A stretch of 64,000 bases of DNA from assembly GCA_012441205.1 (NCBI GenBank), contig GCA_012441205.1_4705.1. One strand, written 5' to 3'. The translations under genes and the position numbers were made by a program. Positions 17,885 to 60,912 of this stretch are shown in pieces. Position 1 is the stretch's first letter. Each line of letters begins with the position of its first letter. The notes beneath the pieces were generated by a model. The model ran no database searches and had not been told where the DNA came from. It saw nothing but the letters and a program-made list of their open reading frames with translations. This DNA comes from a phage.

Positions 17885-17896
17885 TTTATGGTTTAT

Positions 17897-18436
17897 TTAC
17901 TGTTTGTTCGTGGCTTCACGAATGAAAATGACATCAGGATATTCTTGAGATTCAATGAATTCAGGATTACGATAACGACGAATATGACGCATCGTTGTAC
18001 AAGCAAGTTTGTAAAGATGTTCCTCCTCACGTTGTGTTAATAACATCAGTTGCGCGTCTGGAATCACGAATGGGAGTCTTTCATTCACGTATTCCCGAAG
18101 GTCATCGAGATCATCGTGATGAATGCCCTCTGAGAGCTTATATAACGCTTCCAGCAATTCTAATCCACCGAACTGGTAACTTCCTATTGTCGTCTTAAAC
18201 AATGCGCCAGAACGCGTGGTGGATGCTCTATCGGCGACATCGTATTGTTCTAACATATATCCGTAGACCATGCTACGTCGATCCAGTGTATCCGTAACGA
18301 GATTACGCCACCGTTCCAGTCTTTCGAGCGCTTTGTCGATAGAGTAAACGATCATGCCATGTTCATCCAACTCTTCCGCAATACCCAATAGTTCATTGTT
18401 GTTAGGTTTTGCTGCACCGATAAGAAAAACACTCAT
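17897..18436 (-). CDS. hypothetical protein (179 aa)
   Basis: ORF; stop/start overlap with the upstream gene at 18436. Confidence 0.45.
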   Translation of the reverse strand: MSVFLIGAAKPNNNELLGIAEELDEHGMIVYSIDKALERLERWRNLVTDTLDRRSMVYGYMLEQYDVADRASTTRSGALFKTTIGSYQFGGLELLEALYKLSEGIHHDDLDDLREYVNERLPFVIPDAQLMLLTQREEEHLYKLACTTMRHIRRYRNPEFIESQEYPDVIFIREATNKQ

Positions 18437-18897
18437 TACTCAAACTCCTTATTCCAAAACTCGATTAATGAATCGAGCTGTTCCTTACTGGTTATCTCAC
18501 CTCCCCTAACAAAATGAAATCGTTCTTGAATGGCGATCTTTTCAAGGATATCGGTAAGCAAATGACGGTGACAGAAATTTCCTGCAGGACAATAACACCC
18601 TAACACCACAACCGGATGGGAGAATAAAGCCAACCATTCCGGTGTATGATCAACAAAGCTTTTGCGCATAAGCGCGTAGTAGCCTATGGTATATTCATCC
18701 TCGGTTAACGTTTTTGATTTGATTCCTGTAACAAGTTCCCATGAAGGTGCGAAGAGTGGGTTACCTGTTTTCACCGTCGTGTCCAGTAGAAACGCTCGTG
18801 TGTCTGAAAGCCAACGATATTTGGCTAATTGAAGGGTGTATAAAAACACAGCGCTAACCCCAAAGGATAAAAAATAAAACCTTGACATAACCACCAC
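18436..18897 (-). CDS. hypothetical membrane-anchored protein with Cys/His motif
   Basis: 153 aa; hydrophobic N-terminus (FYFLSFGVSAVFLYTL) and a conserved-looking VVLGCYCPAGNFCHRHLL motif. Confidence 0.45.
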   Translation of the reverse strand: MVVMSRFYFLSFGVSAVFLYTLQLAKYRWLSDTRAFLLDTTVKTGNPLFAPSWELVTGIKSKTLTEDEYTIGYYALMRKSFVDHTPEWLALFSHPVVVLGCYCPAGNFCHRHLLTDILEKIAIQERFHFVRGGEITSKEQLDSLIEFWNKEFE

Positions 18898-18953
18898 CGC
18901 AACCCCATACAGGGCTACGGTGGGGTCATACAGAGAGACGTGTTAAGTTACAA

Positions 18954-20369: not shown

Positions 20370-20471
20370 CTTTTAAATTCCTACTTAACAATAAAGTTCA
20401 TATACGGCGTATGTATCCGTAGAATAATGGGTTCTGGTAAGATCTTACATCAAAATGACGGCATAAAAAGT

Positions 20472-20499
20472 ACCTCCTTACCCACATGGGTAAGGAGGT
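20472..20499 (-). terminator. intrinsic terminator
   Basis: 12-bp stem ACCTCCTTACCC / GGGTAAGGAGGT with a 4-nt loop, followed on the minus strand by ACTTTTTATGCCGTCATTTTG. Confidence 0.55.
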
Positions 20500-20651
20500 T
20501 CGTCCATCACGACGAAAGGACGTTATGTGACGCGGTGTCCATAACGGCCCTGGTAGCAGGCATCAAAGATAACAAAAAGGATGTAAGTTGAGCTAAACCA
20601 CCTAAATACGGTAACGATTACTTCCGTACACAATATAACGCAACATCTTTT

Positions 20652-24791: not shown

Positions 24792-24815
24792 GGTACTGCG
24801 TTCAGCGAAATAAAC

Positions 24816-24841
24816 GAGCAGGGGCATGAAGCCCCCTGCTC
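24816..24841 (-). terminator. intrinsic terminator after the RNAP beta-like gene
   Basis: 10-bp stem GAGCAGGGGC / GCCCCTGCTC with loop; on the minus strand it begins right after the TAA stop and is followed by GTTTATTTCGC. Confidence 0.6.
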
Positions 24842-32820: not shown

Positions 32821-33065
32821 GGAGACACTCCTCTTTACCACCACCGGCTGCGGCGGTATCATCTGAACACACGAGAGACGTAATGGGTGATGGCGTCACC
32901 CATCGCTTCCTTGCTTGAGGCGAGGAAGTTATTAGGTTACGTACCTGCCTGATTTTATCAGGTGGGCGATGTGTGAAGTTACGCTTCAACATTATCAATG
33001 CCGAAGGTAAACTTCGTGCATCACGTTCCAACGTAACATGGGAACGTATCGAACTGGAGGTATAC

Positions 33066-39000: not shown

Positions 39001-39731
39001 TACGCGATCCTGCGAAACGGGGTGATGTGCGCCAAGTTCGTTATCTGGTTAACGGTGGCTATAATGGATTACGTGACGTTGAACAGCGCTCTGCTTATTG
39101 GATTCAGGCGGCTAAGAATGGCACCCTGAAGAAAATGATGGATGAGTTATCGGGATCAACATCAGGCGATCAAGCTGAAGGACCGACTACCGCCGAGCAG
39201 GTGAAGAATGAAGCAGCCCAAGAGGCAAACGGAACGCCAACTGTAAGCAACGATCCGCAAGCCCCAGCACCTTCAACCACCCCTGAAGCTAAACCGTCTG
39301 CGGCTGCCGGTACGGCTCCAGCACCCGGAGAAGCATCACCAGCGCCTGGAAGTTTCGAAACAGCGAAAGCTGCGGCAGGACAACCGACATCAACGCCAGC
39401 ACTTAGCGATTTGCCGTCAAACCCTGGCGCAAATCGAGGGATATCGGTTCCGAATACGCCTGCACAGGTCGCGCAGTCTGCGACACAAACATCGGCCGCG
39501 AGTGAGAACTTCTACGGTAGCGCAGGTGAAATTCTCCGACAGCAGCTGACCACGCAGCAGAACATCGAGAAGAACACCGGTAGAACGAATGAACTTATTT
39601 CGGAATTAATCCAAGCCGTTAAGGGTTCTTCTATCGGTAAGGGTTCTGCAAGTCCTTCTCAACAACAGGCGATGTCGCTACCTAATCGTCCGCAAGGAAT
39701 CTCTCCAACACGGACAAGGTACGCGCAGTAG
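33066..39731 (+). CDS. giant virion-associated protein with C-terminal GH19 lysozyme domain (phiKZ gp181-like by size and architecture)
   Basis: ORF track starts at a GTG (32973); the ATG at 33066 has GGAGG about 5 nt upstream, giving 2221 aa. Near the C-terminus MAMFLANIEHESGN and YLGRGFIQVTGKANY match the GH19 catalytic region (AFLAQTSHETTG and YYGRGPIQLS patterns). Also a Gly/Ala-rich hydrophobic segment (about 36650-37000), two tandem ~105-aa repeats (about 35745-36380) and a Pro/Ala/Thr-rich C-terminal linker. Confidence 0.7.
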   Translation: MVDKTRVEGDDNWDNWDEDFSLDLDFNEPKDDRKPITRFAIGAVKGAAEDLTSYERMKEIARNALPKGYSDGMDLIDSAVGSTKELYNEAVRDVLPKVQSSKRLAAQLTKKYRASMPDFSKKILEQWEREAKEEDERKQAEETLRQRMASAGDDEIARKVAEALGESANQSADQFAEQQAKESIRDDIADKRYAVTNKQMSAMQEGVAKMVGFNNEFAARYMRKSLELKYRSLAIQRASFDQHKKLAEVYIGLLQNIQKNTALPDAAKAKMSEEFRRSAYQRFFGNALDAMSSFENRFFADVKKNLATNALGALKGVVSGANDALYGLNEARDSMSMMDGMGSEGDIKEMQGKMLGQFIGSTVAPWMANKGRMALRDLAKRHPNAKFASALKAVDQGGEAAAYTTRNLGKLLQEDIRKNEFNLSDPFYKQLLRGAGRWAFNMDSGRNFRVMNDTAETLAEQTSFDGLTYRSINEVIPGFLARILKSSEGIRTGNSDPDYEVYDGISGQFVSQRTREQSVNDTLFNKRTFGYYASRFNEVISVIDPDKQLSEKARKALAKQLARDSDANIAFDPARFTDESNFDRSIDRDAIKELSTYFRDRYGIRDDVNDKGERHQVIGNRGQYYTERNRADLRYGHLKSLQPDIQRNLNLLKRTGDVQYLERIGIVTRNSDGSYSVNHDRYFSEIDQYIDRPEYADRGDVNTRLTAQETRALALGYRDAKPSAGDVQNVGLPNIGRKAAGTVTVDENIGYDKWWNDTGVITTSLEEQNRAWQELYLEALSEASEQRVEMLALLKAISEKDWSNNVSLDGEDVPEGTAPISFIDRAKQKLGGRNLFKGGRNLLWKGIKNTARLGVKGARWGAERTLGSLVNSGRRIINFNRFVFGALSKVDQVPFDIYVKGESQPRILAAKLRQGLYFDEATGKAVKRMKDIKGPLVDADGNIVISNEDIEKGLVTRAGRAFENSGLKAWAREGLNGITTALSLPRMLKRGAVEIYKQLDKTPDVYVKGESTPRLLSMVLAAGGYFRRSDGQVIKNLEDIDGDVVDAQGNVVLTLADMQKGLVDKYGKAIRRLKEKLINFGVKAFTLPLTLLRKTKDILKALPGKTVNGLRRMGLNFQSPDALLVGTTSSMVDRLDAIYQLLDQRMPGGDKDYRDWNGDGVREGSLEDLKRKREAKENGKDDIGKDSNKGEEKEKKRGLLGSLFDMLGDTAIGKRLMASPLGKILGGLGAVLSGGASLTGLLGKGLIRGTGALVKGGLSAAGWLGRGALMAGGAALNAVGGLSGLGAFLISPVGLAIAGGALAAYAGWKIYQHFAEKPDPMQKLRLIAYGAKGDDKDFNKKLLATETYLTDHVVMTGDTIGFDPKADSEKILEIWELSLEDSDRMNEWKRWYLHRFIPVFARAYKLWKEHMPDEKKYMEMDKYPNGENKVKWSEAFIWPSDSPDGPYYVEANPLGSSGATRYIAGQDVKTLMLKQLEAIKKEYQNQIKQYTHDEAIADWSRMSDTQRKSVAPNALRGQKASLRFNDKRYNSAGAKGRQKLDATAVIESVDRRGRKWVAGGYIDELTSLRVRAYGIKVPLLSQIKVLMELEDAVEPGVVAEGKGVKYGGDLVALYKKFATKFGRDVNSKHDQDIWFAWMNNRFLPVFLTYYQQVSDMGGQGLLSDVVQNLKDSQRWEIGEELVAAQYRDEKGTLQPVWSWNSCGFSGTEANTTSSSTKSQLDLLKEYADKEKVREKNAEASQEDTDKLSKIQELMMKQAGYEKKDGVWQKKSRITGGMSNSEANYNPNGNKVGASSFTASATSSAGLGSTGDLTGLPNMGLQKPATGPGPEAGRRALVKSAVKRGITDPMEMAMFLANIEHESGNYTHVREGNYKTPEHLKQVFPYKFRDVQDAAQTISMGPEAVFERVYGNRKDLGNTQKGDGAKYLGRGFIQVTGKANYARLSKTLNKDLVSDPSYLETPEGAAEGSVAWWLNRGNVLRDPAKRGDVRQVRYLVNGGYNGLRDVEQRSAYWIQAAKNGTLKKMMDELSGSTSGDQAEGPTTAEQVKNEAAQEANGTPTVSNDPQAPAPSTTPEAKPSAAAGTAPAPGEASPAPGSFETAKAAAGQPTSTPALSDLPSNPGANRGISVPNTPAQVAQSATQTSAASENFYGSAGEILRQQLTTQQNIEKNTGRTNELISELIQAVKGSSIGKGSASPSQQQAMSLPNRPQGISPTRTRYAQ
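35745..36380 (+). repeat. internal tandem duplication (two ~105-aa protein repeats) inside the giant gene
   Basis: Protein segments PFDIYVKGESQPRILAAKLRQGLYFDEATGKAVKRMKDIKGPLVDADGNIVISNEDIEKGLV... and TPDVYVKGESTPRLLSMVLAAGGYFRRSDGQVIKNLEDIDGDVVDAQGNVVLTLADMQKGLV... align position by position. Confidence 0.6.
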
Positions 39732-39742
39732 TCATTAGTTAA

Positions 39743-39761
39743 GGGCGGGAATCTCCCGCCC
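39743..39761 (+). terminator. short hairpin after the giant gene
   Basis: GGGCGGGA-ATC-TCCCGCCC followed by TCTTCTTG, then RBS and the ATG at 39781. Confidence 0.4.
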
Positions 39762-39780
39762 TCTTCTTGAGGAATGTTAC

Positions 39781-41922
39781 ATGGGTATTCTTGTTCAAAA
39801 CGCCCTAATCACCAAACAGGCGTTTTTATTACCGGGCGATAGCAGCACGCTTAGTGCTGACATGATTAAAGCGAGACATACACCGTATTCCTACGATAAC
39901 GTCGATGATACCACCTTAGGCGGGAACTGGGTGCTTAACCCACCACCGCAATATACCAAATTTGCCGACATCAAGGAACGCCGACGTGCGGTTATGCCTG
40001 GATCAACGGGCATGGGCCGAGGCTATAGTGAAAGCATTAACAGCTTTAAAGAGGTCGTTACGTTACGATTCGGTAAACCTCGCTTTACAGGCGCAAGTAT
40101 CTTCTTTACTGATTTCTACGATGCCGATGTTGCCGTAACGGTTAAAACCGGTCGCGATCCCGGTATTCTTTATTACGCAGCCAAAGCGTATACCACCGTT
40201 CTTTCTTACCTCACACCTCTACCCTACTTGTATATGGTTGGACGTATCGGTCGATATTTCCTGGGTAAGCCTACCAGTCAATATTACTATCAAGTACCAA
40301 CCATGCACGTGTATTGGGCGTCTTTCCAAACGCTGGTAAACCAAACAGCGATAAACATGGGTCTTATCGCCGGTGCCGGTAAAGATAAAGGCTATGTGGA
40401 AGAAGGGGGTACCGTACTCCACCAATATTCAATCGGTGGTCAGAACGTTGAAGAATTCATCAACTACGCCTCTAAGACGCTACCGGGGATTTATAAGAAA
40501 GGTGGTGGGATCGATATCTACCAGATCGCAACACGACGTCAGCGCATACAGAACGCATGGGTACGTCGTATTCAATCCATGATGGAAAACGATTACTCGT
40601 CTTACGAGGAGTTCTGGAACGATCTTGATAAACGACTTGATAGCGGAGCATTTCCATCGGATGTAACCGGCCGTACGTTAACGCAGTATCTCGCCGACAC
40701 GCAGAAGTCTGCTGTTTACAGTGCGACAGCTGGTGATAATAAACAAACGATGGACGACCTTTTATTTGGAAGAGCCTCGTACACCAATAAAGATGCCGAT
40801 GCTAACTTCAATGTCTCAGCGGCTACCTCCGACGGCGGTACGTCAACACAGAGTCAGGGTACAACAGCCAATGTCGGTAATTCGACGTCAGGGACAACGC
40901 AGGCTTCAACAACAGCATCAACGGCTGGAGGCGCGAACGTACAGAGCAAAGGAATCGGTCAAACGAACGCAGCCGAAGAAGCTACGTTTCTTGATCTGAT
41001 GGATGCTGAACTGGCCGATGGTGCTCAGTTTATCAGTTTTCGAGTCGACTCTGTCACCAGTGTAACCGAAACGTTTTCAAACAGCGCTTCAGAAAGTTCA
41101 ATCGCACAGACGATGAATAGCCGTGCACAAGCGAACATCGAACGTCGTTTCACCCTCTCCGGTGGTAATACAGGTTGGGCTGTACTAGACGAAGCCATCA
41201 AAGCCGGTTCCGATCTCGTTAATGGTGCTATTTCCGGGATGGGCCTGGATGGTATTTTTGGTGCCTTCATGGGTTCCGGCTTCGCCGACATTCCGAAATT
41301 CTATTCCGGATCATCGGTAAGTCTTCCGCGTGCAGATCTGACGATGGAATTGCGTTCCTGGAGCGGGGACCGCTGGTCGATCTTTACGAACCTCATGGTA
41401 CCTCTTTTAGCGATCCTTGCAGGTGGTTTACCTCAGGCTACCGGTAAATCGTCCTACGGGATGCCGTTCATGTGTGAGTGTTATATTCCAGGTAAAGTCC
41501 AGATTAAAATGGGCCTTATCGATAATATCACTGTGACGCGCCATGTTGGAAACGTACCATCAACACGCGAGCGATTACCGTTGGGGATCGACGTCAGCTT
41601 CAGCGTTTATGACCTGTCGTCTATCGTCGCCATGCCGATCACAACGACGGCCGCATCGATCGCAAAATTGGATCCTCGTGGCTTCTTAAGCGATCTTCTT
41701 GCTGACGATACGCCGCTCAACAACTATCTTGCTGTATTATCAGCATTGACACTTACGGAACAAGTTTACATGATTCCGGATTTAAGTCGTCGCATGCATA
41801 AAACCATGGCTGATATCGATAGTTTCTGGAGCAAAGGTAATTTTGCTAGCTGGTTGTCTGACACCATGCCTGGCAGGATAGCATCAGGGCTGTTATGGAA
41901 ACGTACAGAACGGCCGTTCTGA
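39781..41922 (+). CDS. hypothetical protein, possibly virion structural (713 aa)
   Basis: Follows the giant gene on the same strand; contains a Ser/Thr/Gly-rich linker; no catalytic motif seen. Confidence 0.5.
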   Translation: MGILVQNALITKQAFLLPGDSSTLSADMIKARHTPYSYDNVDDTTLGGNWVLNPPPQYTKFADIKERRRAVMPGSTGMGRGYSESINSFKEVVTLRFGKPRFTGASIFFTDFYDADVAVTVKTGRDPGILYYAAKAYTTVLSYLTPLPYLYMVGRIGRYFLGKPTSQYYYQVPTMHVYWASFQTLVNQTAINMGLIAGAGKDKGYVEEGGTVLHQYSIGGQNVEEFINYASKTLPGIYKKGGGIDIYQIATRRQRIQNAWVRRIQSMMENDYSSYEEFWNDLDKRLDSGAFPSDVTGRTLTQYLADTQKSAVYSATAGDNKQTMDDLLFGRASYTNKDADANFNVSAATSDGGTSTQSQGTTANVGNSTSGTTQASTTASTAGGANVQSKGIGQTNAAEEATFLDLMDAELADGAQFISFRVDSVTSVTETFSNSASESSIAQTMNSRAQANIERRFTLSGGNTGWAVLDEAIKAGSDLVNGAISGMGLDGIFGAFMGSGFADIPKFYSGSSVSLPRADLTMELRSWSGDRWSIFTNLMVPLLAILAGGLPQATGKSSYGMPFMCECYIPGKVQIKMGLIDNITVTRHVGNVPSTRERLPLGIDVSFSVYDLSSIVAMPITTTAASIAKLDPRGFLSDLLADDTPLNNYLAVLSALTLTEQVYMIPDLSRRMHKTMADIDSFWSKGNFASWLSDTMPGRIASGLLWKRTERPF

Positions 41923-41939
41923 TATTCACTGCATAAACC

Positions 41940-41971
41940 CCCTCTCCCTTCCCTGCTGGGTTGGGAGAGGG
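41940..41971. terminator. hairpin terminator between convergent genes (conserved family)
   Basis: CCCTCTCCC-TTCCCTGCTGGGTT-GGGAGAGGG followed by ATTATGTTAACC; near-identical to the element at 54803-54834 with compensatory stem changes. Confidence 0.55.
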
Positions 41972-41977
41972 ATTATG

Positions 41978-43045
41978 TTAACCTAACGTCACCGTCGGTA
42001 AATCAGGATAAAGTTTCTTCAAGCCTGCCATCGTGGTGGTAGTTGTATAATTCTTACCCATCGCAGCAAGAGATGCGTATTTCCTACTGCGAGAGAAAAG
42101 AGAATAGAACCCACTGGATGTTTCCATCCACATCGTGAGGAGTTCTGCATCGTTACCGTGATAGTTCGTTTTACCCCATCCAGGTTTAAACGCATCGGCA
42201 AAATCAATTAAACGCGAGGCTTCAGCGTCGTATTCTTTAAGGGTAAGGTACGATGGAATGCGGTAGTTACGAAACAGTAACGTAATGAGTTCAGGGACAA
42301 CGCTACGGGCACGTTCAGCCGTGATAAGTTCGGTGATCACAGCAGCTGTACGGAAATCGCCGTTAAGACCAACGCTGCTTAACGATTCCGCTAAAGTGGT
42401 CGCCATCGCCACTTTATCCTCCGCTGACCCAGAGTCATACAGACTACGCACATCGATGTAGTTGCCTGCTAATGCGGCTTGACGAATCAACGATGTGACA
42501 ACTGTCCGGTTCGTCTTATAGTCGTTGTAACTGAATTCGGTTCGCGTTTTCCCTTGATCGTCGAGATACCGATCGACAATCGTTGAAAGTTTATAATACT
42601 CATCGCCCGACATCAGACTATCGAGAAGCTTAACGTTTCCATCTTTATCAATAAGCTTCCCTAACGCACCATTGGATTGCTGGTTAATGGTACTGTAAAT
42701 CTGGTCTTTTACTTGCGATAGAATGTTATCGGTTGACGATATATTCAGGCCAGTAACATCTTTGATCTTATTCATCAACGCGTTTTCATTCAGGGAGATT
42801 TTGCCTCCGCTGATATCGATGAAAGAATTAAGATCGCTTATGGAAATCAGGTTTCCTGTTAACGCCGATAATGTACTATTGATACTGTTCGTAATACTGC
42901 TGCGAAAACTGGTTAACGCATCCGCCGCTGAAACAGCGGTACCGCTAACCGCTTTAAGGAGCGTATCACGCCCTGTCGAAAAATCGCTGGTGATGGTTTT
43001 GATCTTGGACGTATCTATACTCGGCAGTTTGTCGTAAAGACTCAT
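41978..43045 (-). CDS. hypothetical protein (355 aa)
   Basis: ORF track starts at 43096; the ATG at 43045 (MSLYDKLP...) has AGGAGG 6 nt upstream and sits just after a terminator hairpin. Confidence 0.5.
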   Translation of the reverse strand: MSLYDKLPSIDTSKIKTITSDFSTGRDTLLKAVSGTAVSAADALTSFRSSITNSINSTLSALTGNLISISDLNSFIDISGGKISLNENALMNKIKDVTGLNISSTDNILSQVKDQIYSTINQQSNGALGKLIDKDGNVKLLDSLMSGDEYYKLSTIVDRYLDDQGKTRTEFSYNDYKTNRTVVTSLIRQAALAGNYIDVRSLYDSGSAEDKVAMATTLAESLSSVGLNGDFRTAAVITELITAERARSVVPELITLLFRNYRIPSYLTLKEYDAEASRLIDFADAFKPGWGKTNYHGNDAELLTMWMETSSGFYSLFSRSRKYASLAAMGKNYTTTTTMAGLKKLYPDLPTVTLG

Positions 43046-43083
43046 CACGTCCTCCTGAAAAAGAAAAAAGAAATACGGCATAA

Positions 43084-43111
43084 AGCCTACCCACACAATG
43101 GTGGGTAGGCT
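43084..43111 (-). terminator. intrinsic terminator
   Basis: 10-bp stem AGCCTACCCA / TGGGTAGGCT, followed on the minus strand by TTTATGCCGTATTTCTTTTTTC. Confidence 0.55.
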
Positions 43112-49314: not shown

Positions 49315-50157
49315 ATGCATAAATTTACCATTCCTGAAGACCCGATTACACTGCAGACCCTTTGGGATTCACATCGTGCTTTATCAATGGAAGGCTTTGC
49401 GCAAGACTTCGCTTCACTTACCGCAGTAACGAATCTTCGCAGTATGTTTACCAACGGTAAGAAGTTTGTTACCGATTGGCTTAAGAAACGTGATGTGACG
49501 GTTTATCCTAAAGTTTTCGATGACCTCGATACGATTTTTAGCAACAACGCTTACAGCGATCTCATTGGGTATCGTGCTTTTATTCCGAATGGTTTAAATG
49601 CGCCGATGTCAGATTATGTTGTTGCTTTAACTCAGAGCCTGGATAGCGTGATTGGCACCATCCTACCTGATTTGGATAAGCTGACCGTAACGTGCGCTAA
49701 AGCCGTCAACGACGTTAACTTCCGTCGTAGTAGTGGTATGGCTCAAACGCTACCTAAAAACGATCCAGAGAACGTTCTAGAGACGTTACGTGCGATGTTC
49801 AAACAAGGGACGGTAACACAGACCACTGTAGGCCGTGCATATAAGAACGAAGATGATATTCGTCAGATCGGAAAAGATCTGGATGCTTCCCGTATCCGTG
49901 CGCTTGACGTTAATCCTAAAGACGTGAAGAAGGCAATCGAACGTTTCATGGAGGTAGCTGACCGTTTAACCGAAATCCTGGTTCAAGACTACAATGAAGG
50001 TGCGGTGAGCAACGCGATGATTCGCGATATTAGTGACGCTATCTACCAAACAGCCAAGCAGGCTGAACTGTATGCGTTTCTCGTGAACGCTTTGGCTGAG
50101 GCGATCATCGCATATAACGACACTTGGGACGCCGTTAAAAAGAACGCGAAAAAATAA
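49315..50157 (+). CDS. hypothetical protein (280 aa)
   Basis: ATG at 49315; followed by a terminator hairpin. Confidence 0.5.
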   Translation: MHKFTIPEDPITLQTLWDSHRALSMEGFAQDFASLTAVTNLRSMFTNGKKFVTDWLKKRDVTVYPKVFDDLDTIFSNNAYSDLIGYRAFIPNGLNAPMSDYVVALTQSLDSVIGTILPDLDKLTVTCAKAVNDVNFRRSSGMAQTLPKNDPENVLETLRAMFKQGTVTQTTVGRAYKNEDDIRQIGKDLDASRIRALDVNPKDVKKAIERFMEVADRLTEILVQDYNEGAVSNAMIRDISDAIYQTAKQAELYAFLVNALAEAIIAYNDTWDAVKKNAKK

Positions 50158-50165
50158 CATAATAA

Positions 50166-50201
50166 CCCACCCTACTACCCCGTTAAGGGCGGTAGGGTGG
50201 G
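50166..50201. terminator. bidirectional hairpin terminator between convergent genes
   Basis: CCCACCCTAC...GTAGGGTGGG (10-bp outer stem plus inner pairing), followed by GATAAGGTTTATTTGCCG on the plus strand and by TTATTATGTTATTTTTTCG on the minus strand. Confidence 0.5.
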
Positions 50202-50208
50202 ATAAGGT

Positions 50209-50640
50209 TTATTTGCCGTATAGTTGTACCACTCGTTGTGTCGTAGGAACGCAGACTCTTACCAGAAGCTTTTTAATCTCCTGACGAATCGTTGCTTTAT
50301 CATCATAATAAAGCCATGGCGGAACGCGTTGCATTATGCACTGCACGGCTTCATCGTAGTTCGTCGTCTCATTAAGTAACGTCTCACTATCCAGATCTTT
50401 CCATGCAGTAATACCAAGTCGCGCAGCAAACATCAACGCTGAAACCGACTCAGCTATCTCCAATCGCTCATTCATATCCGCAAGACCTTTTAGCATGATG
50501 TAATTATCGTCATGCTGGTGCAGGGTACCATACAAACTTCCGAAGAGAAGTATGCGTTTAGCTTTTGCGGTTAAGAGGAACGATAGGAGAGCGTGTTTCA
50601 ACGGTTGTTTCTCACGTTCTACCTGTTCGACCATCACCAT
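50209..50640 (-). CDS. hypothetical protein (143 aa)
   Basis: ORF immediately downstream of the RNase H gene. Confidence 0.45.
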   Translation of the reverse strand: MVMVEQVEREKQPLKHALLSFLLTAKAKRILLFGSLYGTLHQHDDNYIMLKGLADMNERLEIAESVSALMFAARLGITAWKDLDSETLLNETTNYDEAVQCIMQRVPPWLYYDDKATIRQEIKKLLVRVCVPTTQRVVQLYGK

Positions 50641-52826: not shown

Positions 52827-54167
52827 ATGATTAGTATTTTTGGTTTTTATACGTACAAAGGGTACGCTAATAACCACCCAAAAACCACGGCGAAATTCGG
52901 TGAGTTCAGTCAGCACAGTGCTACGTTCAGTCGCGAAATCGGCATCTATACCAACACGGCGTACGCACGTACGACCTTATTAGTGTTGAATGCCGAAAAC
53001 GAAGCTGGTGAAGCACAAACGCTGAATGACGACACCGCAGGCCGCATTCTTCAGGTTGGTCAATGGTTGCTGGAAAAAGCCTCATCAGGCGAAATCCAGG
53101 ATGACCGAGACCAGGTTATCGGCTACCTAAAAGACGACTTCACAACGTATCTGGATTCTATCGACATCCCAACACCCACCACCGATGGTACCGTCTATCT
53201 ACCGGCGTGGATCAGTTTCAAGATAACCGCCACCGGCGATGTCGTCAAGATTTGGTTGTCTGATAGCGTATTCCAAAGTCAATATCCAAAATACGAATAT
53301 GAAGTCGTTCCCCCTGTTCCTAAGGATCAGTTAGATACCTTCTTCGAAGATCTGGCAACATTGAAGAAACTGGTTGACAGTCGAAGCAGCGAGAAACTGA
53401 CCGAAGAAATCAACGAGGTGCGCGACCAATTCCCAGACACACAATTGTGGACGAAAACATATAAAGCGTACGATTACACCGACGATTCGAAATATATTAA
53501 TACCGATTGGACGGTGATTATCTACGGTGCAGCAGGTAACAACATTGATAATATCAAGGAGTTCCTGCAAAACTGGATTCTTAGCAATAGCACGCACGGA
53601 CGTCCAGACTGGGAAATCGTTCTGCCGGATCTTTTTATTCCGACGGAACACATCTTCATTCCAATCTGGAACCGCCACAGTGCGCCAGAAATGACCAATC
53701 AGGCACGTATCTATAGTCCTATATTCGATGATTCGTTGATGGATACCTACCTGAAAAACTTTGCTGATGGTTACGGCGAAACCGCCGAAGTCCGTAAATC
53801 GCTTCAAGCGGTGCCGACGTTGTGGCGCTCGATCGGTTTCTTAAGCGTTGGTAACTCACGTAACCGAGACGGTAAACTTAAGTTCTACGATCGTTGGCCG
53901 CAATACGCGCTCATCAGCACAACCAGCATCGATATTAACCGTATCGATGATGCGACACGTGAATTCATCACGTTCACTTACGAAATGCTGAAACTGGCAG
54001 AATCGCTGACCGAAGACGACCCGGTACCGTTGGGTTATAGTCGTGTTACGCGTGGTAGCAATAGCTTCTTAGCGAAAAGCCACAACGATGTTCAGTATCT
54101 CTTCTTAACAAAAGAAGCGTTCCTGAAGAAAATGCCGGATGAAGCCGACACGCCTGTTGGAGGTTGA
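52827..54167 (+). CDS. hypothetical protein (446 aa)
   Basis: ATG at 52827 with GAGGA RBS 6 nt upstream; stop overlaps the RBS/start of the next gene. Confidence 0.5.
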   Translation: MISIFGFYTYKGYANNHPKTTAKFGEFSQHSATFSREIGIYTNTAYARTTLLVLNAENEAGEAQTLNDDTAGRILQVGQWLLEKASSGEIQDDRDQVIGYLKDDFTTYLDSIDIPTPTTDGTVYLPAWISFKITATGDVVKIWLSDSVFQSQYPKYEYEVVPPVPKDQLDTFFEDLATLKKLVDSRSSEKLTEEINEVRDQFPDTQLWTKTYKAYDYTDDSKYINTDWTVIIYGAAGNNIDNIKEFLQNWILSNSTHGRPDWEIVLPDLFIPTEHIFIPIWNRHSAPEMTNQARIYSPIFDDSLMDTYLKNFADGYGETAEVRKSLQAVPTLWRSIGFLSVGNSRNRDGKLKFYDRWPQYALISTTSIDINRIDDATREFITFTYEMLKLAESLTEDDPVPLGYSRVTRGSNSFLAKSHNDVQYLFLTKEAFLKKMPDEADTPVGG

Positions 54168-54169
54168 TT

Positions 54170-54796
54170 ATGGCTGTAACACGCATGACGCCAAGTCCCG
54201 GTGCGGTCGGGGTATTCACAGTATCAGCGCCGTTTACCGTTGGTGCGTCAACGCTATATACCGTTACAGCGTTGCGAAGATTCAGCGAAGTCATCGGTAG
54301 TGGAATCGATCTATTTACGGAACTGTACGAACCGTTATCAATAGACAAATCCACATTCGAAGCGCATCTCGAAGCGAATGCTTATCTCGTCACGTTGCAA
54401 CCGGATTACGGTGCACCCGTACTGGTACCTGATACGTATATCACGTCGTACCCAAAGAACGATTCATTGCGGTATCGTCGCATTATTCTGGGTATCGATT
54501 TCGGGCCTCTTCCTCCCGGTCTTGACCTTTCGTATTTAACAACGATATTGAAAGGTAAGGCCAGTGATATTCTTGGTGTCGAACCTGAAGTTAAAACGAT
54601 GGAAATCACTCTCGATGATACCGTTACTCAGGAACAACATCAGATAAACGAAGCCCGTCGTCAGGCCGCGATAAAAGAGCGAGATACCATATACGCACGT
54701 TGTGAAACGCAAGAGAAGCAGATAACGGCTTTACTTGCAACCCAAAAGCAACTTATCAAATTGCTTCAAGACGCCGGTATCAATCCGACACCTTAA
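54170..54796 (+). CDS. hypothetical protein (208 aa)
   Basis: ATG at 54170 with GGAGG 8 nt upstream (ORF track starts at a TTG at 54164); translationally coupled to the upstream gene. Confidence 0.5.
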   Translation: MAVTRMTPSPGAVGVFTVSAPFTVGASTLYTVTALRRFSEVIGSGIDLFTELYEPLSIDKSTFEAHLEANAYLVTLQPDYGAPVLVPDTYITSYPKNDSLRYRRIILGIDFGPLPPGLDLSYLTTILKGKASDILGVEPEVKTMEITLDDTVTQEQHQINEARRQAAIKERDTIYARCETQEKQITALLATQKQLIKLLQDAGINPTP

Positions 54797-54802
54797 CATA
54801 TT

Positions 54803-54834
54803 CCCTCCTCCTTCCCTGTTGGGTTGGAGGAGGG
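54803..54834. terminator. hairpin terminator (conserved family)
   Basis: CCCTCCTCC-TTCCCTGTTGGGTT-GGAGGAGGG followed by TTATGCTGTC. Confidence 0.55.
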
Positions 54835-54848
54835 TTATGCTGTCAAGC

Positions 54849-54864
54849 AAAAAAAAAAAAAAAA
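54849..54864. repeat. 16-nt poly(A)/poly(T) homopolymer tract
   Basis: A16 on the plus strand between two hairpins in a convergent intergenic region; reads as T16 downstream of the minus-strand gene ending at 54910. Confidence 0.8.
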
Positions 54865-54875
54865 TGATAGTCACA

Positions 54876-54897
54876 GGCTCTCCAATGAAGGAGAGCC
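54876..54897 (-). terminator. hairpin after minus-strand gene 54910..55611
   Basis: GGCTCTCC-AATGAA-GGAGAGCC; on the minus strand it is followed about 11 nt later by the T16 tract. Confidence 0.45.
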
Positions 54898-54909: not shown

Positions 54910-55611
54910 TTAAGATGCAGATAATCTCGCGTACTTCTGGCGAACATGGTTCTTACGGCGAACTTCGTCGTCCTCGTCGCGCCATTCGAGGTAAGCAACG
55001 AATCGACGTAACTGCGCCGCCGTCATCGTTGACGAGCGGTCTTCTACGTCTAGAACAACGTAACGAACATCACCAACGCCATCGCAATCAACGTAACTGA
55101 ATACCAAAAGGCCATCGCCGTACTCAACGATGGTAACTTCGAATCGTTTATCGAACAAATAAAACAGTTCCGATTCAATGATCATCGGAATGACGCATAA
55201 ATCAGCACGATTGAGGATTTCCATCATCACCCGTAACGCGCGAGGAGTATGGCGAGCGAACTGGTCGTTAAAACGTTGTTTCATCGCTTGTTCCACGCCA
55301 TCTGTTTTTGTTCCAAACCACGGACGTACTACAGATTTCGGTGGTGTAAGACGAAAGCGATATGCTTGTATAAACAACAGAATATCAGCGACGTTAGGAA
55401 ATTCTTCCTGGTCTTCGTATATCTTGCGGATAATATCCGGAATCGTAACCATCAAGTATTTCTTATCGCCTCCCACTTTCTCGAGATTAGCAATATGTCC
55501 TTCTACCACAGGCTGGTAAACGAAATTATACCAATGACGGTATCTTTCAGTACGTTGGTAGTTTGGGATAAAATTAAGAATAATACTCACTGCGCGTTTT
55601 AATGGGTTCAT
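54910..55611 (-). CDS. hypothetical protein (233 aa)
   Basis: ATG at 55611 with AGAAGGA RBS; last gene of a four-gene minus-strand operon. Confidence 0.5.
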   Translation of the reverse strand: MNPLKRAVSIILNFIPNYQRTERYRHWYNFVYQPVVEGHIANLEKVGGDKKYLMVTIPDIIRKIYEDQEEFPNVADILLFIQAYRFRLTPPKSVVRPWFGTKTDGVEQAMKQRFNDQFARHTPRALRVMMEILNRADLCVIPMIIESELFYLFDKRFEVTIVEYGDGLLVFSYVDCDGVGDVRYVVLDVEDRSSTMTAAQLRRFVAYLEWRDEDDEVRRKNHVRQKYARLSAS

Positions 55612-56578: not shown

Positions 56579-56679
56579 TGTCATCTCCCCTACATACGCA
56601 TCTTGAAGATCGGTTAAAAACAACAAAAGAAAAAACGATATAAAGCAAGGTCCTCTGATATCAGAGGACCTTGGATCAA

Positions 56680-57336
56680 TTAGCTTGCAGCTTCTTCATT
56701 TGTATCAGGTTTGCTTCCCCCTAACAAACCGTCAAACAGACCCGTATGTTTCAGGTAGAAGAGAGCGATAGCGCCCATTGCTGCTGCGCTCGTCGCCGTT
56801 AACGCAACCCCGGCACGATACTGCCATTTACGGTCAGGCTTTTGATCAAGAGCCATACGACGCATGTATTCAGCCTCTGCTTCATTCCGATGAATTTCGG
56901 ATTCAGCCAAGCGGGCTAAGGTATCGCGGTCAAGGTTATCATAACGTACGTTCATGGTGGTTTCCTCTTGTTTGGAAGTTGATTGCTTAGTGGATTCTTG
57001 GTCAACAGTCGTTTCAGATGGTTCAAACGGCTGGTTGTTCATTTTCTGATCTTTATTGGTCATGATAGACTCCTTCGATTTTTGAGACGAAATTGATTTA
57101 AACCATCGTGGATGGCGGTATTCAGTTTTACATGTGCAGTTAAGTTTCTCGTGCAGGAAAGCGTAAAAACGTTTTGCGCCTACACGTAAGGCTTTCAGCA
57201 TTACCCATCCACGAGCACTCAAACGGTGTAGCTGTTGCGGTATGTCGAGTTTCCTAGCCAAGCGAAAGTATCTTTCAATCACTTCGATAGGAAACCATTG
57301 TTGTTCCACATCGGTGAGACTGAAAGTCTTATCCAT
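56680..57336 (-). CDS. hypothetical protein with C-terminal transmembrane segment; alternative internal start at 57063
   Basis: 218-aa ORF from the ATG at 57336 (weak RBS, about 30 nt after the promoter motif). The in-frame ATG at 57063 has a strong GGAG RBS 7 nt upstream and would give a 127-aa tail-anchored protein (C-terminal ALTATSAAAMGAIALFYL). Confidence 0.45.
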   Translation of the reverse strand: MDKTFSLTDVEQQWFPIEVIERYFRLARKLDIPQQLHRLSARGWVMLKALRVGAKRFYAFLHEKLNCTCKTEYRHPRWFKSISSQKSKESIMTNKDQKMNNQPFEPSETTVDQESTKQSTSKQEETTMNVRYDNLDRDTLARLAESEIHRNEAEAEYMRRMALDQKPDRKWQYRAGVALTATSAAAMGAIALFYLKHTGLFDGLLGGSKPDTNEEAAS

Positions 57337-57378: not shown

Positions 57379-57486
57379 GTGAAAAATGTTGGATTAAGTT
57401 AAATACCGCAACCGCAGCTAATTTTATAGGCTTTTAGCCTAAACCAATCATCTTCGGAATCATCATCTTTGAAACAGGAATCTATC

Positions 57487-58308
57487 ATGGAAAAAGTATT
57501 TGTTTGTAAGTTGTTTACCAACGGCAATAGCCAACCAATGTATCTGACCGATCCTGTTCTAGGTAATCGGAACAGTACCGTATTCAAAGAGGCTTTCGAA
57601 TACGCTAAAAATAAAGCCGTGAGAACACTGACGTCTGATGACTGTATCAACGGTATCACGTGGGCAGAGTTAATCGGTGATGCCGTTCGACACTTCGTTC
57701 GGGATGCGAGAAAACGGGAAATCTGTCTCACGACTATTGTTGTGCGTGAAAACGCAGAAATTTTATCAAACGTTTTGGTTGATTTTAATGACGTTTGTGT
57801 GTTTAATCCAGAGAACACGTTTGAACAATACCTTACTGCCCTGAACAACCAGCTCGGTAAAGATATTCATCCCGAATTCGCCAAGTTAACATATCAGTTA
57901 CTTTTTGACGACGTCGATCCAAATACGAAGATCGATACCAGCTTATCGCCCCTGGTAAAGAAATACGGATCGGTTCTCGCTACGGCAACACCCACCACCG
58001 ATGGTGGTTATGATATCGAATTGGATGATCCATTAAAAGAACAAGAGCCTACTGGGGTTAGGGCGGTACATCACAACCTCGTCGTTAAATCTGATGGATG
58101 CGATGAACATTACGCTATGATAAACGATGAAAACAATTACCGTTTAAGTCAAGCGATTGGTGTTCTACGCTATACCGAACCCACTGTTGTAGACGATTAT
58201 ACATCGACAACAACGCACACCACGTGTTTCATTTTCATCTATCCCAATGAAAGTGTGTACATTACCGACTGCTATGGCAATACCGTAGATAGCTTACGTC
58301 GTTATTGA
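57487..58308 (+). CDS. hypothetical protein (273 aa)
   Basis: ATG at 57487 (ORF-track start 57469 is a TTG); followed by a classic terminator. Confidence 0.5.
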   Translation: MEKVFVCKLFTNGNSQPMYLTDPVLGNRNSTVFKEAFEYAKNKAVRTLTSDDCINGITWAELIGDAVRHFVRDARKREICLTTIVVRENAEILSNVLVDFNDVCVFNPENTFEQYLTALNNQLGKDIHPEFAKLTYQLLFDDVDPNTKIDTSLSPLVKKYGSVLATATPTTDGGYDIELDDPLKEQEPTGVRAVHHNLVVKSDGCDEHYAMINDENNYRLSQAIGVLRYTEPTVVDDYTSTTTHTTCFIFIYPNESVYITDCYGNTVDSLRRY

Positions 58309-58314
58309 TTATCG

Positions 58315-58345
58315 AGCCTGTCCTTCGGGGCAGGCTTTTTATGCT
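58315..58345 (+). terminator. rho-independent terminator
   Basis: 9-bp stem AGCCTGTCC / GGGCAGGCT with TTCG loop, followed by TTTTTATGCTGTT. Confidence 0.65.
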
Positions 58346-58411
58346 GTTAAATATCAGGAATAAGAATTAACAAAATAGGAAAATGGTGTGTATATAACAC
58401 AAAGGAGGGAG

Positions 58412-58534: not shown

Positions 58535-58644
58535 AAACACTGTGTGCATTAGTGTATGACGAGAAATCGTCGAGGCCCCCGTCTTCACGAGGGCCAACAC
58601 CTATGCATGATTATTCATCGTCTGTTAAACAAAAGGTTATAAAC

Positions 58645-58953
58645 ATGAGCAATTTGAACGTTGAATTTACTTCAACAACGCCTGTCATGAATGGTGTTGG
58701 CACTGAAACCAAAATCGTATTAGAACCCATTCCAGGGTTACGCGATCTCGGTGATTTTTATCCACTGATGCCGCGTATACGGAAGGCCTTAAACAGTATC
58801 GATCTTGATTCCAATAAAGATTTCCAACACGATACAGAAAATACCGATCATGTATTGCTGCCATCAGGGATCGCAAAATTCACCTACACGCAAACATTGA
58901 AAGCCTCTGATGGTGAAATCCGTCGTTTTATCGTTGAAGTAGAAAGCGCATAA
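58645..58953 (+). CDS. hypothetical protein (102 aa)
   Basis: ATG at 58645 with AAAAGG about 9 nt upstream (ORF-track start at 58552 looks too early). Confidence 0.45.
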   Translation: MSNLNVEFTSTTPVMNGVGTETKIVLEPIPGLRDLGDFYPLMPRIRKALNSIDLDSNKDFQHDTENTDHVLLPSGIAKFTYTQTLKASDGEIRRFIVEVESA

Positions 58954-58957
58954 AAAC

Positions 58958-58989
58958 CATCCTCCCAACCCGTAAGGGAAGGGAGGATG
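58958..58989. terminator. bidirectional hairpin terminator (conserved family, inverted orientation)
   Basis: CATCCTCCC-AACCCGTAAGGGAA-GGGAGGATG; followed by AAATATGCCGTT on the plus strand and by GTTTTTATGCGCT on the minus strand. The loop is close to the reverse complement of the loops at 41949 and 54812. Confidence 0.55.
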
Positions 58990-59006
58990 AAATATGCCGT
59001 TAAACG

Positions 59007-59636
59007 TTATTCAACAAACCCTGCATTCAACAGATTGTCGTAAACACGATTAGCGACATCAACAGGAGAATGTGTGTTACTGGTATCTATACGCAGCGTT
59101 TTCGCGTCGCCGAGATAGTCCATAAAATCCATGTAACGATAACGTCGTTTATTGAATGTCGCTTCATCGATGTTATCAAACATCTGATGTTTAGCGTGAC
59201 GAACACGGAACCGCCTTAAATACGTAGGATAGTCGATATCCAGATAAACATAGTAAGACGGCATGATAATCGACGGTAGGTTCGGCAACAATGCGTCAAA
59301 CAACTTAACGTTGGCATCATTAACCTGATAAACATACGTCGAAGCAATCGAACGATCGCTAAGCACAGTCTTCCCTTCGTTAAGGGCTGGATGAATCACC
59401 TTGTTGAAGAGATGATTACGTTGCGACATCATCGCCAATAGTTCAGTTTCTGGATCGAATCTGTTCGTTGGTGTCTGATCTTCCAGGATAAGTTTACGAA
59501 TGGCTTCTCCGTAGAGCGTACCACCGGGTTCACGTACGACACAGACGTTGTTTAAACGACTGTGTAAAGACGAGATAACCGAACTCTTTCCTGAATAATC
59601 CAGACCTTCAATAACGATATATTTATTACGAGACAT
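59007..59636 (-). CDS. tmk: thymidylate kinase
   Basis: Start set to the ATG at 59636 (GGAG RBS). YIVIEGLDYSGKSS (P-loop), REPGGT and IHPALNEGKTVLSDRSIASTYVYQ match the Tmk P-loop, REPGGT and DRY/lid regions. Confidence 0.85.
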   Translation of the reverse strand: MSRNKYIVIEGLDYSGKSSVISSLHSRLNNVCVVREPGGTLYGEAIRKLILEDQTPTNRFDPETELLAMMSQRNHLFNKVIHPALNEGKTVLSDRSIASTYVYQVNDANVKLFDALLPNLPSIIMPSYYVYLDIDYPTYLRRFRVRHAKHQMFDNIDEATFNKRRYRYMDFMDYLGDAKTLRIDTSNTHSPVDVANRVYDNLLNAGFVE

Positions 59637-59652
59637 TCCCCGCTCCAATTAA

Positions 59653-60879
59653 CTACTTCGTTTTCGCCGTTATCGGCTGCGATACTGTAATCTCGACCCG
59701 ATCGACATCGGTACGTTTAACGATGATAAGGCTGCGTTCATCACCGAATGGTTCTGAGATCTTACAAGCCTCTTTAAGATTTTCGAGAATCGTGCCATGG
59801 GGTTCAAACACCGCAAAACCGGAACTAGCGTCGATTCTTATTAAATATACACGCACATTGTTTACGGTAATGGTGTCATCCGTCTTGAACCCACAGCAGG
59901 AGGGTAGACAGAACTGACCATTAACGCAATTAGCTAAGTATGCCTCACCACCGAACATTTCTATTAACGTCACCGGTTTAAATGTTTTCTCTGGGAAAGC
60001 ATTATTAAGAATATCGTTTCCATTCACAAACCAGATCGTTACTTTATCTTCGGAATACGCTAGTCTGTATGGTTGGGTTGCGGACGCCTGCGCTTTATGC
60101 TGGTTAAATAACTTTGATTTTGTCGCAATCACAGCACGACCTTGGGCGTCAAAGTACAGAACTTCATACCCAACACATCCGATAAACACGCGACGGTTAT
60201 TAAGTTCCGGAATTCTGACTACTAACGCATTACCATCTTCCGTCGGTGTAATACCACGTAGGATGATAGATTCGTTGTTCAATGTTGAGTTGCTCACGAT
60301 GACGCTTCGCATTACCGCTGGCGACACTATTTCATCTGCTGCAGGTTCAAGTTGCTCCGCTGTTACAGTCACGGATCTGTCTTCCTTTTCAACTGGCCAG
60401 TTGAAAAGGATTGTTTTATTAAGACAAACAATTGGGGTAATTTCGCCGATACTCCGTATCTTGACTGAGGGGCAATTGCACACATACGGAACAAAAACAT
60501 CAATATCGTTGGTCGCTTCTTCAAGCATGCTAGCATACGCCATTGCTTCGGGACGATCGGTGAGATGAATAACAGCATAGACGATATCGTCTTTTAACCA
60601 CGCACGTTTCACTCGTCCTATAACACGATTGATGTCTACAATAACTCTCTGAGCTTTCATCTCCCATTTTACTGCATCAGTACCACCCGCAACCACGTTC
60701 GGTTTATCCGTGTTTACACGATGAAGGAAACTATTGATTATTTCCTCATCGATCTGGATATCCTTTCTCGCAAAATTCAACAACGGAATAACGAACTCAT
60801 TGTTACCGCACTTCTCTGCTCCGCGAATGATAGGAGTACACTTCTTGTTCTCATCTGATCCCCAGATAACTTTAGTCAT
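59653..60879 (-). CDS. hypothetical protein (408 aa)
   Basis: Start set to the ATG at 60879 (GAAGGAAA RBS); Cys-rich in places; no nuclease or phosphoesterase motif recognised. Confidence 0.45.
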   Translation of the reverse strand: MTKVIWGSDENKKCTPIIRGAEKCGNNEFVIPLLNFARKDIQIDEEIINSFLHRVNTDKPNVVAGGTDAVKWEMKAQRVIVDINRVIGRVKRAWLKDDIVYAVIHLTDRPEAMAYASMLEEATNDIDVFVPYVCNCPSVKIRSIGEITPIVCLNKTILFNWPVEKEDRSVTVTAEQLEPAADEIVSPAVMRSVIVSNSTLNNESIILRGITPTEDGNALVVRIPELNNRRVFIGCVGYEVLYFDAQGRAVIATKSKLFNQHKAQASATQPYRLAYSEDKVTIWFVNGNDILNNAFPEKTFKPVTLIEMFGGEAYLANCVNGQFCLPSCCGFKTDDTITVNNVRVYLIRIDASSGFAVFEPHGTILENLKEACKISEPFGDERSLIIVKRTDVDRVEITVSQPITAKTK

Positions 60880-60912
60880 TTTCTGTTTCCTTCTTGGGTT
60901 TTGCACAAGTTT

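Follow-up and report, generated by a model that had tools for sequence, protein, structure and literature searches.

Stem-loops with a TTATG tail as candidate transcription terminators of the phiKZ class in a Goslar-like jumbo phage

Transcription terminators with a distinctive tail have been described for two jumbo phages. ONT-cappable-seq of phiKZ mapped 133 termination regions; 61 terminators, defined by mapped 3' ends, carry the motif 5'-BCCYCCCCHWWDGGGRRGGBYTTATKYYGT-3' (MEME E=1.7e-212), and six bidirectional terminators were found between convergent genes (Putzeys et al. 2024, Microlife, PMC10914365). Terminator motif A of phage 201phi2-1 (n=59) was reported to strongly resemble the phiKZ motif, and eight selected 201phi2-1 terminators were put through an in vivo terminator trap in uninfected P. 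chlororaphis, which according to the authors confirmed the function of several of them (PMC11512511). The late promoter of phiKZ, in turn, is TATG with the transcription start at G (Yakunina et al. 2015, PMC4666361); a structure of the phiKZ non-virion RNA polymerase with a promoter has been published (PMC12809450), and this enzyme binds the late-promoter TATG on the non-template strand, beneath its beta-lobe. Here we describe a family of hairpins in a 64,000-nt stretch of phage DNA (GenBank assembly GCA_012441205.1, contig GCA_012441205.1_4705.1; hereafter the window), typified by the palindrome at 54803-54834, which an earlier reading made from the sequence alone had flagged as a putative terminator. 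On the strength of their sequence and position, these elements are in all likelihood intrinsic-type transcription terminators of a Goslar-like chimallivirus and members of the phiKZ-type class, so that in kind they are largely known.

Megablast of positions 52000-60000 reported a sole match, Escherichia phage vB_EcoM_Goslar (96.6% identity), an E. coli jumbo phage of the nucleus-forming family Chimalliviridae, and the whole window aligns with Goslar positions 182379-237307 and then 1-8188 at 96-97% identity. The matching Goslar region is annotated with RNA-polymerase subunit homologues (beta-subunit). Two further Goslar-type genomes were found in IMG/VR (relatives A and B); for the phages that come next in similarity, protein identity is only ~26-42% in the tail-tube and capsid proteins. 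A search of a viral-contig collection for CCTTCCCTNNNGGGTTGG revealed multiple copies in three Goslar-type genomes only and mostly single matches, as chance predicts, in other viral contigs; it provided the loci for a comparison of four genomes (the window, Goslar and the two IMG/VR relatives). An Rfam scan of the whole window at the gathering score assigned the hairpins to no family, its sole match being a group I intron.

The elements are stable RNA stem-loops, rich in C/T in the 5' arm and in G/A in the 3' arm (CCCTCCTCC/GGAGGAGGG, CCTCCCTCG/CGAGGGAGG, CCTTCCTTCCC/GGGAAGGAAGG and others; stems of mixed composition, as at 43084, 56646 and 58314, are in the minority), followed by 1-3 nucleotides, mostly T, and then by TATG-C-Y-G-T in place of a long U-tract. 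The Goslar-type consensus fits the phiKZ motif position by position: the two arms of the stem-loop, YTTATKYYGT directly after the stem, the location 3' of genes and the bidirectional copies at convergent junctions are all present, in a genome that, by its identity to Goslar, belongs to a chimallivirus with its own multisubunit RNA polymerases. This identity with the phiKZ motif, the gene-linked orientation of the tails, the covariation of the stems and the conservation of the elements are the four grounds on which we regard them as terminators; homology to the phiKZ and 201phi2-1 motifs and the position relative to genes likewise lend indirect support to the earlier proposal of a terminator family with a conserved tail that is not a plain U-tract.

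All ten hairpins listed in the sequence-only reading were found in the window. The coordinates 379-403, 17848-17884, 20472-20499, 43084-43111 and 50166-50201 are correct, while those given as 6715-6743 are ~10 nt off, the true hairpin being 6725-6753 (CCTCCTCTGGG-AATGGAA-CCCAGAGGAGG). The hairpins at 54803, 41940 and 58958 are built alike, their outer stem of 9 bp being followed by an internal loop (TT/TT or AA/AA), a CCC/GGG helix and a terminal loop of 4 nt, and fold as RNA with -23 to -27 kcal/mol (z -3.6 to -6.2) on both strands. As had been proposed, the stem CCCTCTCCC/GGGAGAGGG distinguishes 41940-41971 from 54803-54834 by a two-position compensated change within the same architecture, and 58958-58989 is an element of the 54803 type with a reverse-complemented apex. 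The statement that most of the listed hairpins lie between convergent genes is true for 7 of the 10, and such a hairpin, with a tail for either strand, occurs at 7 of the window's 8 convergent junctions. The set also includes eight more intergenic hairpins (3682, 7120, 9403, 18892, 24814, 39741, 54876 and 56646), which brings the catalogue of the window to 18, four of them independently marked as putative terminators by the depositors of the Goslar genome. The stem and tail at 54803 are kept in Goslar and in both IMG/VR relatives, with a variable loop. The tail itself had been described as (T)TTATGC(C/T)GT after many of the hairpins; it is indeed found at 54835 (TTATGCTGT), 58338 (TTTATGCTGT), 43083(-) (TTATGCCGT) and 20469(-) (TTTTTATGCCGT), while 58957(-), named as a further instance, reads only TTATGCGC. 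Partial or variant tails occur at 6 sites of the window and none at 2.

The excess of these elements over chance was evaluated with 40 dinucleotide shuffles of the window. Strand-specific hairpins with a free energy (dG) <=-15 number 43, against 9.2±4.1 (maximum 23) in the shuffles, and those with TATG <=12 nt downstream number 10, against a mean of 0.33 (maximum 1). Counted over the entire window, the hexamer TTATGC shows no enrichment (35 versus 33 expected), so the signal lies in its position after hairpins and not in its frequency; the longer TATGCYGT is enriched (10 versus 3.5). A generic terminator scan demanding a T-run gave a weak excess (32 versus 19.6) and missed most family members, and the hairpin census was used instead.

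For a genome-wide view we pieced together the full Goslar sequence and catalogued 218 hairpin loci at dG<=-12. Gene contexts outside the window were taken from a greedy model of open reading frames (ORFs) that recovers 17 of 20 annotated gene ends, and the genome-wide counts are therefore approximate. TATG follows the strongest Goslar hairpins within 11 nt in 24% of cases, compared with 2.2% at random positions. This association depends on orientation: TATG occurs <=12 nt after 41 of 79 hairpins located 3' of a gene on that strand, after 8 of 55 in the opposite orientation (Fisher p=9e-6), and after 10 of 298 hairpin strands inside Goslar coding sequence. Alignment on TATG yields the profile G-rich arm, T(T), TATG, C (27/43), C/T (37/43), G (24/43), T (20/43) and then a T-rich stretch, with the TATG starting 1-3 nt past the stem in 26 of the 43 tails. 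Conversely, ~24 of 27 intergenic TATGCYG sites follow a hairpin (including sites missed by the automatic catalogue and checked by eye), and at most of the 16 convergent loci TATG or a close variant is found on both strands. Of the 93 strongest hairpins, 13 (14%) have five T or more among the 8 nt that follow; where a canonical terminator would have a U-rich tract of ~7-9 nt adjoining the stem, these elements typically read UUAUGCYGU.

Some Goslar elements form paralogous groups. The flagged type (54803) is present in 15 near-identical copies; a family of three copies (11186, 84366 and 200229; window 17848) has the common apex TAGCCGTCAAGGCCG in either orientation; and two identical copies of GAGCCTGTCC-TTCG-GGGCAGGCTT are located at 3506 and 180586(-) (window 58314). 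The genome seems to copy or homogenise its terminator sequences.

The sequence-only reading had taken covariation of the stems as a sign of selection on RNA structure, and three lines of evidence support it. In an alignment of 17 paralogous copies, 99% of stem cells are paired, against 51-66% in controls with slid partners; 6 of the 12 pairs carry changes in both partners (28 cells) and none in one partner alone, and the covariation score was reached by 0 of 500 shuffles, with the caveat that arm-to-arm template switching can yield 'compensated' changes in one step. The window differs from Goslar by 3.3% overall, by 1.6% at paired positions (7/430), by 1.6% in the 15-nt flanks and by 16.9% (22/130) at unpaired hairpin positions; against the genome average, stems and flanks show a twofold higher conservation and loops a fivefold higher variability. 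Finally, the RNA fold of the sense strand is the more stable one at 36 of 47 one-directional loci (binomial p=3.5e-4), versus 80 of 143 hairpins in coding sequence (Fisher p=0.015); this excess points to G-U pairing and hence to selection at the RNA level.

Comparison of the four genomes, which are ~3% apart, also revealed apices or loops that are exactly reverse-complemented between outer stems and tails that remain unchanged (Table 1). These apex flips account for most of the hypervariability of the loops, and the same element accordingly exists in two flip states, one of which is the 'inverted copy' at 58958. They suggest recurrent arm-mediated inversion or template switching. Small inversions associated with hairpins have been described in chloroplast non-coding DNA and in template switching at quasipalindromes, and there, too, the sequence enclosed by perfect inverted arms, loop or apex, is found as its exact reverse complement in close relatives; the flips reported here differ in residing in phage terminators, as a mutational side-effect and not as the function of the element. 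Apex flips between near-identical genomes may be a new observation.

A lack of conservation at the same intergenic positions in related phages would have counted against the sequence-only reading, but the elements do recur after the tail-tube and major-capsid genes of phages with only ~26-42% protein identity. In the window (17848), in Klebsiella phage Eowyn (TATGCCG) and in Erwinia phage PhiEaH1 (ATTTATGCTGG), a tailed hairpin comes after the tail-tube gene, and in KTN4 (phiKZ species) GCCTCCC-TTCG-GGGAGGC-TTTATGTTGT is found after this gene, beyond a small intervening ORF. The major-capsid gene is followed by …TCTATGCCGT in Goslar and by GGCCCTCCC-TTCG-GGGAGGGC-TTTATGTTGT in fnug (phiKZ species). 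In the same type of hairpin analysis as for Goslar, TATG follows 13 of 46 strong hairpins in a 40-kb locus of KTN4 (p=7e-7) and 13 of 58 in Eowyn (p=3e-7). The phiKZ-type signal of hairpin plus TTATG extends to enterobacterial chimalliviruses (Goslar and Eowyn).

The hairpin would form in the nascent RNA as RNA polymerase leaves the gene, and the short, weak UUAU hybrid would let the transcript go a few nucleotides past the stem, probably with help from the conserved downstream bases; we infer both the formation of transcript 3' ends here, in this phage, and the action of the tail. At convergent genes a single hairpin, with a tail for each strand (CATAA-hairpin-TTATG), would serve both directions. 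The likely users are the phage's own multisubunit polymerases, since phiKZ transcription is independent of the host RNA polymerase and RNA-polymerase subunit homologues are present here. The tail is best treated as part of the termination signal because it occurs on both strands at convergent junctions, because the motif is bound to hairpins, because the presumed P119L promoter site is free of a hairpin, and because C-Y-G-T is no reported feature of promoters. That the phage's own multisubunit polymerase reads the tail as a sequence-specific signal, beyond its action as a weak U-tract, is a tentative and rather doubtful extension. If true, capture of TATG by the same beta-lobe pocket during elongation, just after the hairpin, could pause the polymerase, and termination would be specific to the phage enzyme, with possible coupling to re-initiation at same-direction junctions. 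In the phiKZ polymerase structure paper PMC7618050, termination, pausing and hairpins were looked for without a match, and termination likewise in PMC12809450. The sharing of TATG between the tail and the core of the phiKZ late promoter may be a new point.

Several observations weigh against terminators of this kind. The tail is missing at 7120 and 39741 and reads TTAT without G at 3682, 24814 and 56646; PhiEaH1 displays no clear enrichment of TATG tails (2/39) and mostly has plain T-runs in their place, which means that the tail is no general feature of the family. The test of strand asymmetry is dominated by minus-strand genes, and its coding control removes the effect of composition only partly. 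Published Goslar RNA-seq was analysed at the level of genes plus two start sites, and some of the 3' ends mapped in phiKZ might conceivably result from trimming back to a hairpin. Finally, the tail contains the TATG core of the phiKZ late promoter, and a promoter role is possible at some sites. The presence of the signal in Goslar and Eowyn, and not clearly in PhiEaH1, suggests that it probably tracks the phage polymerases and varies by lineage.

The promoter core in the tail leads to composite modules, in which the hairpin terminates and the adjoining TATG is a phiKZ-type late promoter, with its start at G, for the next gene. Such an arrangement would suit the 10 of 18 intergenic hairpins in the window that lie between same-direction genes, with the next gene 3-250 nt downstream, and the divergent late-gene region 14700-14844 does have TATGCCGT and TTATGC motifs without a hairpin. 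At convergent pairs, however, the tail is on both strands, no same-direction gene follows, and a promoter would fire antisense into the facing gene; TATGCYG without a hairpin is rare in intergenic Goslar DNA (~3 of 27 sites); in fnug, the TATG taken as P119L upstream of the gene-119 homologue has neither a preceding hairpin nor YYGT; and the conserved C, Y, G and T have not been reported for phiKZ late promoters. We therefore consider such modules unlikely as a general explanation, and the promoter-like TATG element that the sequence-only reading offered as an alternative is retained for some sites but not favoured generally, given the both-strand tails and the hairpin-free P119L. A stand-alone promoter reading of TATGCYG was rejected, as nearly all intergenic copies follow a hairpin, and so was a hairpin that is itself part of a promoter, as in phage N4, since these elements come after stop codons and no hairpin accompanies the likely P119L site. 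The hairpins could alternatively act after transcription, by blocking 3'-to-5' exonucleases, with the AU-rich tail as an endonuclease site. Their location in 3' untranslated regions would fit, mapped 3' ends at stable hairpins alone cannot tell termination from trimming, and the UUAUG tail is single-stranded and AU-rich and may resemble a cleavage site. The terminator trap, which by its authors' account confirmed several selected 201phi2-1 terminators, and the enrichment of primary transcripts by ONT-cappable-seq count against processing, which we hold to be very unlikely. The GC-rich conserved part of the tail (GCYGT) would be atypical for an RNase E site.

Translational control, with the GGAGG of the 3' arm as a Shine-Dalgarno sequence and the ATG of the tail as a start codon, sequestered by the C/T-rich 5' arm, would explain why in many copies an ATG lies 4-7 nt past the GGAGG. 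Goslar_00183 and Goslar_00047 are annotated as starting at a tail ATG (Goslar 166924 and 49772), the ATG after hairpin 9403 is the start codon of the downstream gene, ORF 7160..9391(-), within GGAGGAGTTTATATG, and the tail ATG at 43081 (43079-43081(-)) is in frame with ORF 41978..43096. Most tail ATGs, however, open frames of 4-20 codons (MLSSKKKKK* at 54838, MPSF* at 20463) or face a convergent gene, the phiKZ consensus permits T for G (TTATK), and the conserved YYGT would impose Met-Pro/Leu on unrelated genes. This explanation accounts for a few sites, fails at convergent ones and at the short frames, and is highly improbable; gene callers can nonetheless be misled on start codons by the GGAGG...ATG of terminator tails. 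Hardly probable at all are repeated palindromes that act on the DNA level, like repetitive extragenic palindromes (REPs) or cruciforms in recombination, replication or packaging, with no role in transcription. The 15 near-identical Goslar copies of one palindrome and the inversion of apices between strains, which reveals an interaction of the DNA arms, are compatible with them, but tail orientation tracks the direction of transcription, G-U pairs favour the transcribed strand, the elements are located just past stop codons, and the equivalent phiKZ motif marks transcript ends. The elements are multi-copy, but where placement of elements like REPs or miniature inverted-repeat transposable elements would be independent of transcription, as a rule together with a transposase or target-site features, placement and tail orientation here follow gene ends. 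RNA-binding data for ChmC were considered as well; no motif is reported in them, hence no link to these hairpins was made.

Taken as terminators, the elements listed in Table 1 provide a usable terminator map for Goslar-like E. coli jumbo phages and define likely boundaries of transcription units.

Table 1. Hairpins of the window with their gene contexts and tails, apex flips in related genomes, and a designed replacement tail (dG in kcal/mol)
Feature	Coordinates	Strand	Context	Hairpin	Tail and remarks
Flagged candidate bidirectional terminator	54803..54843		between convergent 54164..54796(+) and 54910..55611(-)	54803-54834; CCCTCCTCC-TT-CCC-TGTT-GGG-TT-GGAGGAGGG; RNA dG -26.6 / -27.0, z about -6 (-5.9)	plus TTATGCTGT at 54835-54843; minus AATATGTTAAGG at 54802..54791
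Candidate bidirectional terminator	41928..41982		between 39781..41922(+) and gene 41978..(-)	41940-41971	plus ATTATGTTAAC; minus GGTTTATGCAGT
Candidate bidirectional terminator	58946..59000		between 58552..58953(+) and 59007..59648(-)	58958-58989	plus AAATATGCCGT; minus GTTTTTATGCGC
Candidate bidirectional terminator	17835..17891		after tail-tube gene 16932..17822(+), facing 17897..18436(-)	17848-17884	plus TTTATGG; minus GAGGTTAATATGC
Candidate bidirectional terminator	50149..50219		between 49315..50157(+) and 50209..50640(-)	50166-50201	plus ..TTTATTTGCCGT; minus TTATTATGTTATTTTTT; putative terminator in Goslar annotation
Candidate bidirectional terminator	6721..6765		between 5328..6572(+) and 6766..7074(-)	6725-6753	plus ACTATGTTTGCC; minus CTATGAGG
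Candidate one-directional terminator	58314..58347	+	after 57469..58308(+)	GAGCCTGTCC-TTCG-GGGCAGGCTT	TTTATGCTGT; putative terminator in Goslar annotation
Candidate one-directional terminator	43075..43111	-	between two minus-strand genes	43084-43111	TTATGCCGT at 43083..43075; element identical in Goslar and IMG/VR relative A
Candidate one-directional terminator	20458..20501	-		20470-20501	ACTTTTTATGCCGT
Candidate one-directional terminator	18884..18925	-		18892-18925; minus-strand stability via G-U pairs	GTTATGTC
Candidate terminator	377..413	+	after 21..365(+); overlaps 3' end of convergent minus-strand ORF	379-403	variant TATTTGCCGT
Hairpin	9389..9431	-	between 9442..11181(-) and 7160..9391(-)	9403-9431	then GGAGGAGTTTATATG
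Hairpin	3671..3709	-	after 3737..4090(-)	3682-3709	variant AAGTTTATAC (TTAT without G)
Hairpin	24806..24843	-	after 24842..29188(-)	24814-24843	variant TTATTTCG; putative terminator in Goslar annotation
Hairpin	56636..56673	-	after 56680..57336(-)	56646-56673	CTTTATATCGTTTTTT; putative terminator in Goslar annotation
Second hairpin in flagged convergent gap	54849..54897	-		54876-54897	T16 run 11 nt on (plus-strand A16, 54849-54864)
Intergenic hairpin	7120..7147	-	between two minus-strand genes		without TTAT/TATG tail
Intergenic hairpin	39741..39763	+	between 32973..39731(+) and 39781..41922(+)		without TTAT tail (CTTCTTGAGG)
Apex flip	17859-17873			17848	15-nt apex exact reverse complement in Goslar
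Apex flip	20484-20487			20470	loop ACAT -> ATGT in Goslar
Apex flip	39751-39755			39741	loop flipped in IMG/VR relative B
Apex flip	41949-41962			41940	apex flipped in Goslar, plus extra loop substitutions
Apex flip	54884-54889			54876	loop flipped in IMG/VR relative A
Apex flip	58967-58980			58958	14-nt apex exact reverse complement in IMG/VR relative A
Replacement tail (design)	templates 54803-54843 or 43075-43111				TTTTTTTT

Other features of the window deserve a brief description. The divergent region 14700-14844 separates two blocks of virion genes (with the tail-sheath gene on the plus strand), and its motifs (TATGCCGT at 14724-14717(-), TTATGC at 14760-14755(-) and TTATGCC at 14776(+)) may be phiKZ-like TATG late promoters. 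A stable hairpin at 1413-1438(-), followed by TTTATTCTG, is situated inside the annotated gene 1201..1575(-) and could be an internal attenuator or a chance structure. The 55 nt at 54810-54864 match both ends of the Goslar GenBank record, which consequently begins inside the flagged hairpin and has a 55-nt terminal duplication; the A16 run that closes this segment is A13 in one IMG/VR relative. The ~530 nt at 60358-60885, within ORF 59653..60906(-), gave no alignment to Goslar 5546-6026 at the BLAST threshold used and are unaligned in both IMG/VR relatives too, with flanks 94-97% identical, and they may represent a replaced gene segment. The group I intron is located at 29435-29821(-) (full-length match to the Rfam model RF00028 at 57.8 bits). 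It is annotated in Goslar too, next to an RNA-polymerase beta subunit and to genes resembling phiKZ ORF178/ORF179.

Among the known systems, the elements resemble most closely the terminators of phiKZ and 201phi2-1, with which they share the GC-rich stem-loop with its C/T-rich 5' and G/A-rich 3' arms, the YTTATKYYGT tail, the many copies and the location in intergenic 3' regions. They differ from those of phiKZ in the longer stems (9-15 bp, often containing an internal TT/TT loop plus a second helix of 3 bp) of lineage-specific sequence, in the tail position K, which here is nearly always G, and in that the set consists in part of families of near-identical paralogs, such as the 15 copies of one type in Goslar; moreover, the 3' ends were mapped in phiKZ, whereas the Goslar-type elements are known from sequence. 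Canonical Rho-independent terminators likewise combine a GC-rich hairpin with a U-containing tract and have bidirectional forms with A-rich and U-rich flanks, but here the U-tract is replaced by 1-5 T and ATGCYGT, with conserved G/C positions in the tail. The phiKZ late promoter has in common with the tail the TATG, its most conserved part, yet such promoters require no hairpin and lack a conserved YYGT downstream, whereas the tails are placed downstream of genes and often point into a convergent gene. The class II signal of T7 RNA polymerase, a sequence-specific pause and termination signal of a single-subunit enzyme that needs no hairpin, offers an analogy only, in the idea that termination by a phage polymerase draws on a short conserved sequence and not on a U-tract alone.

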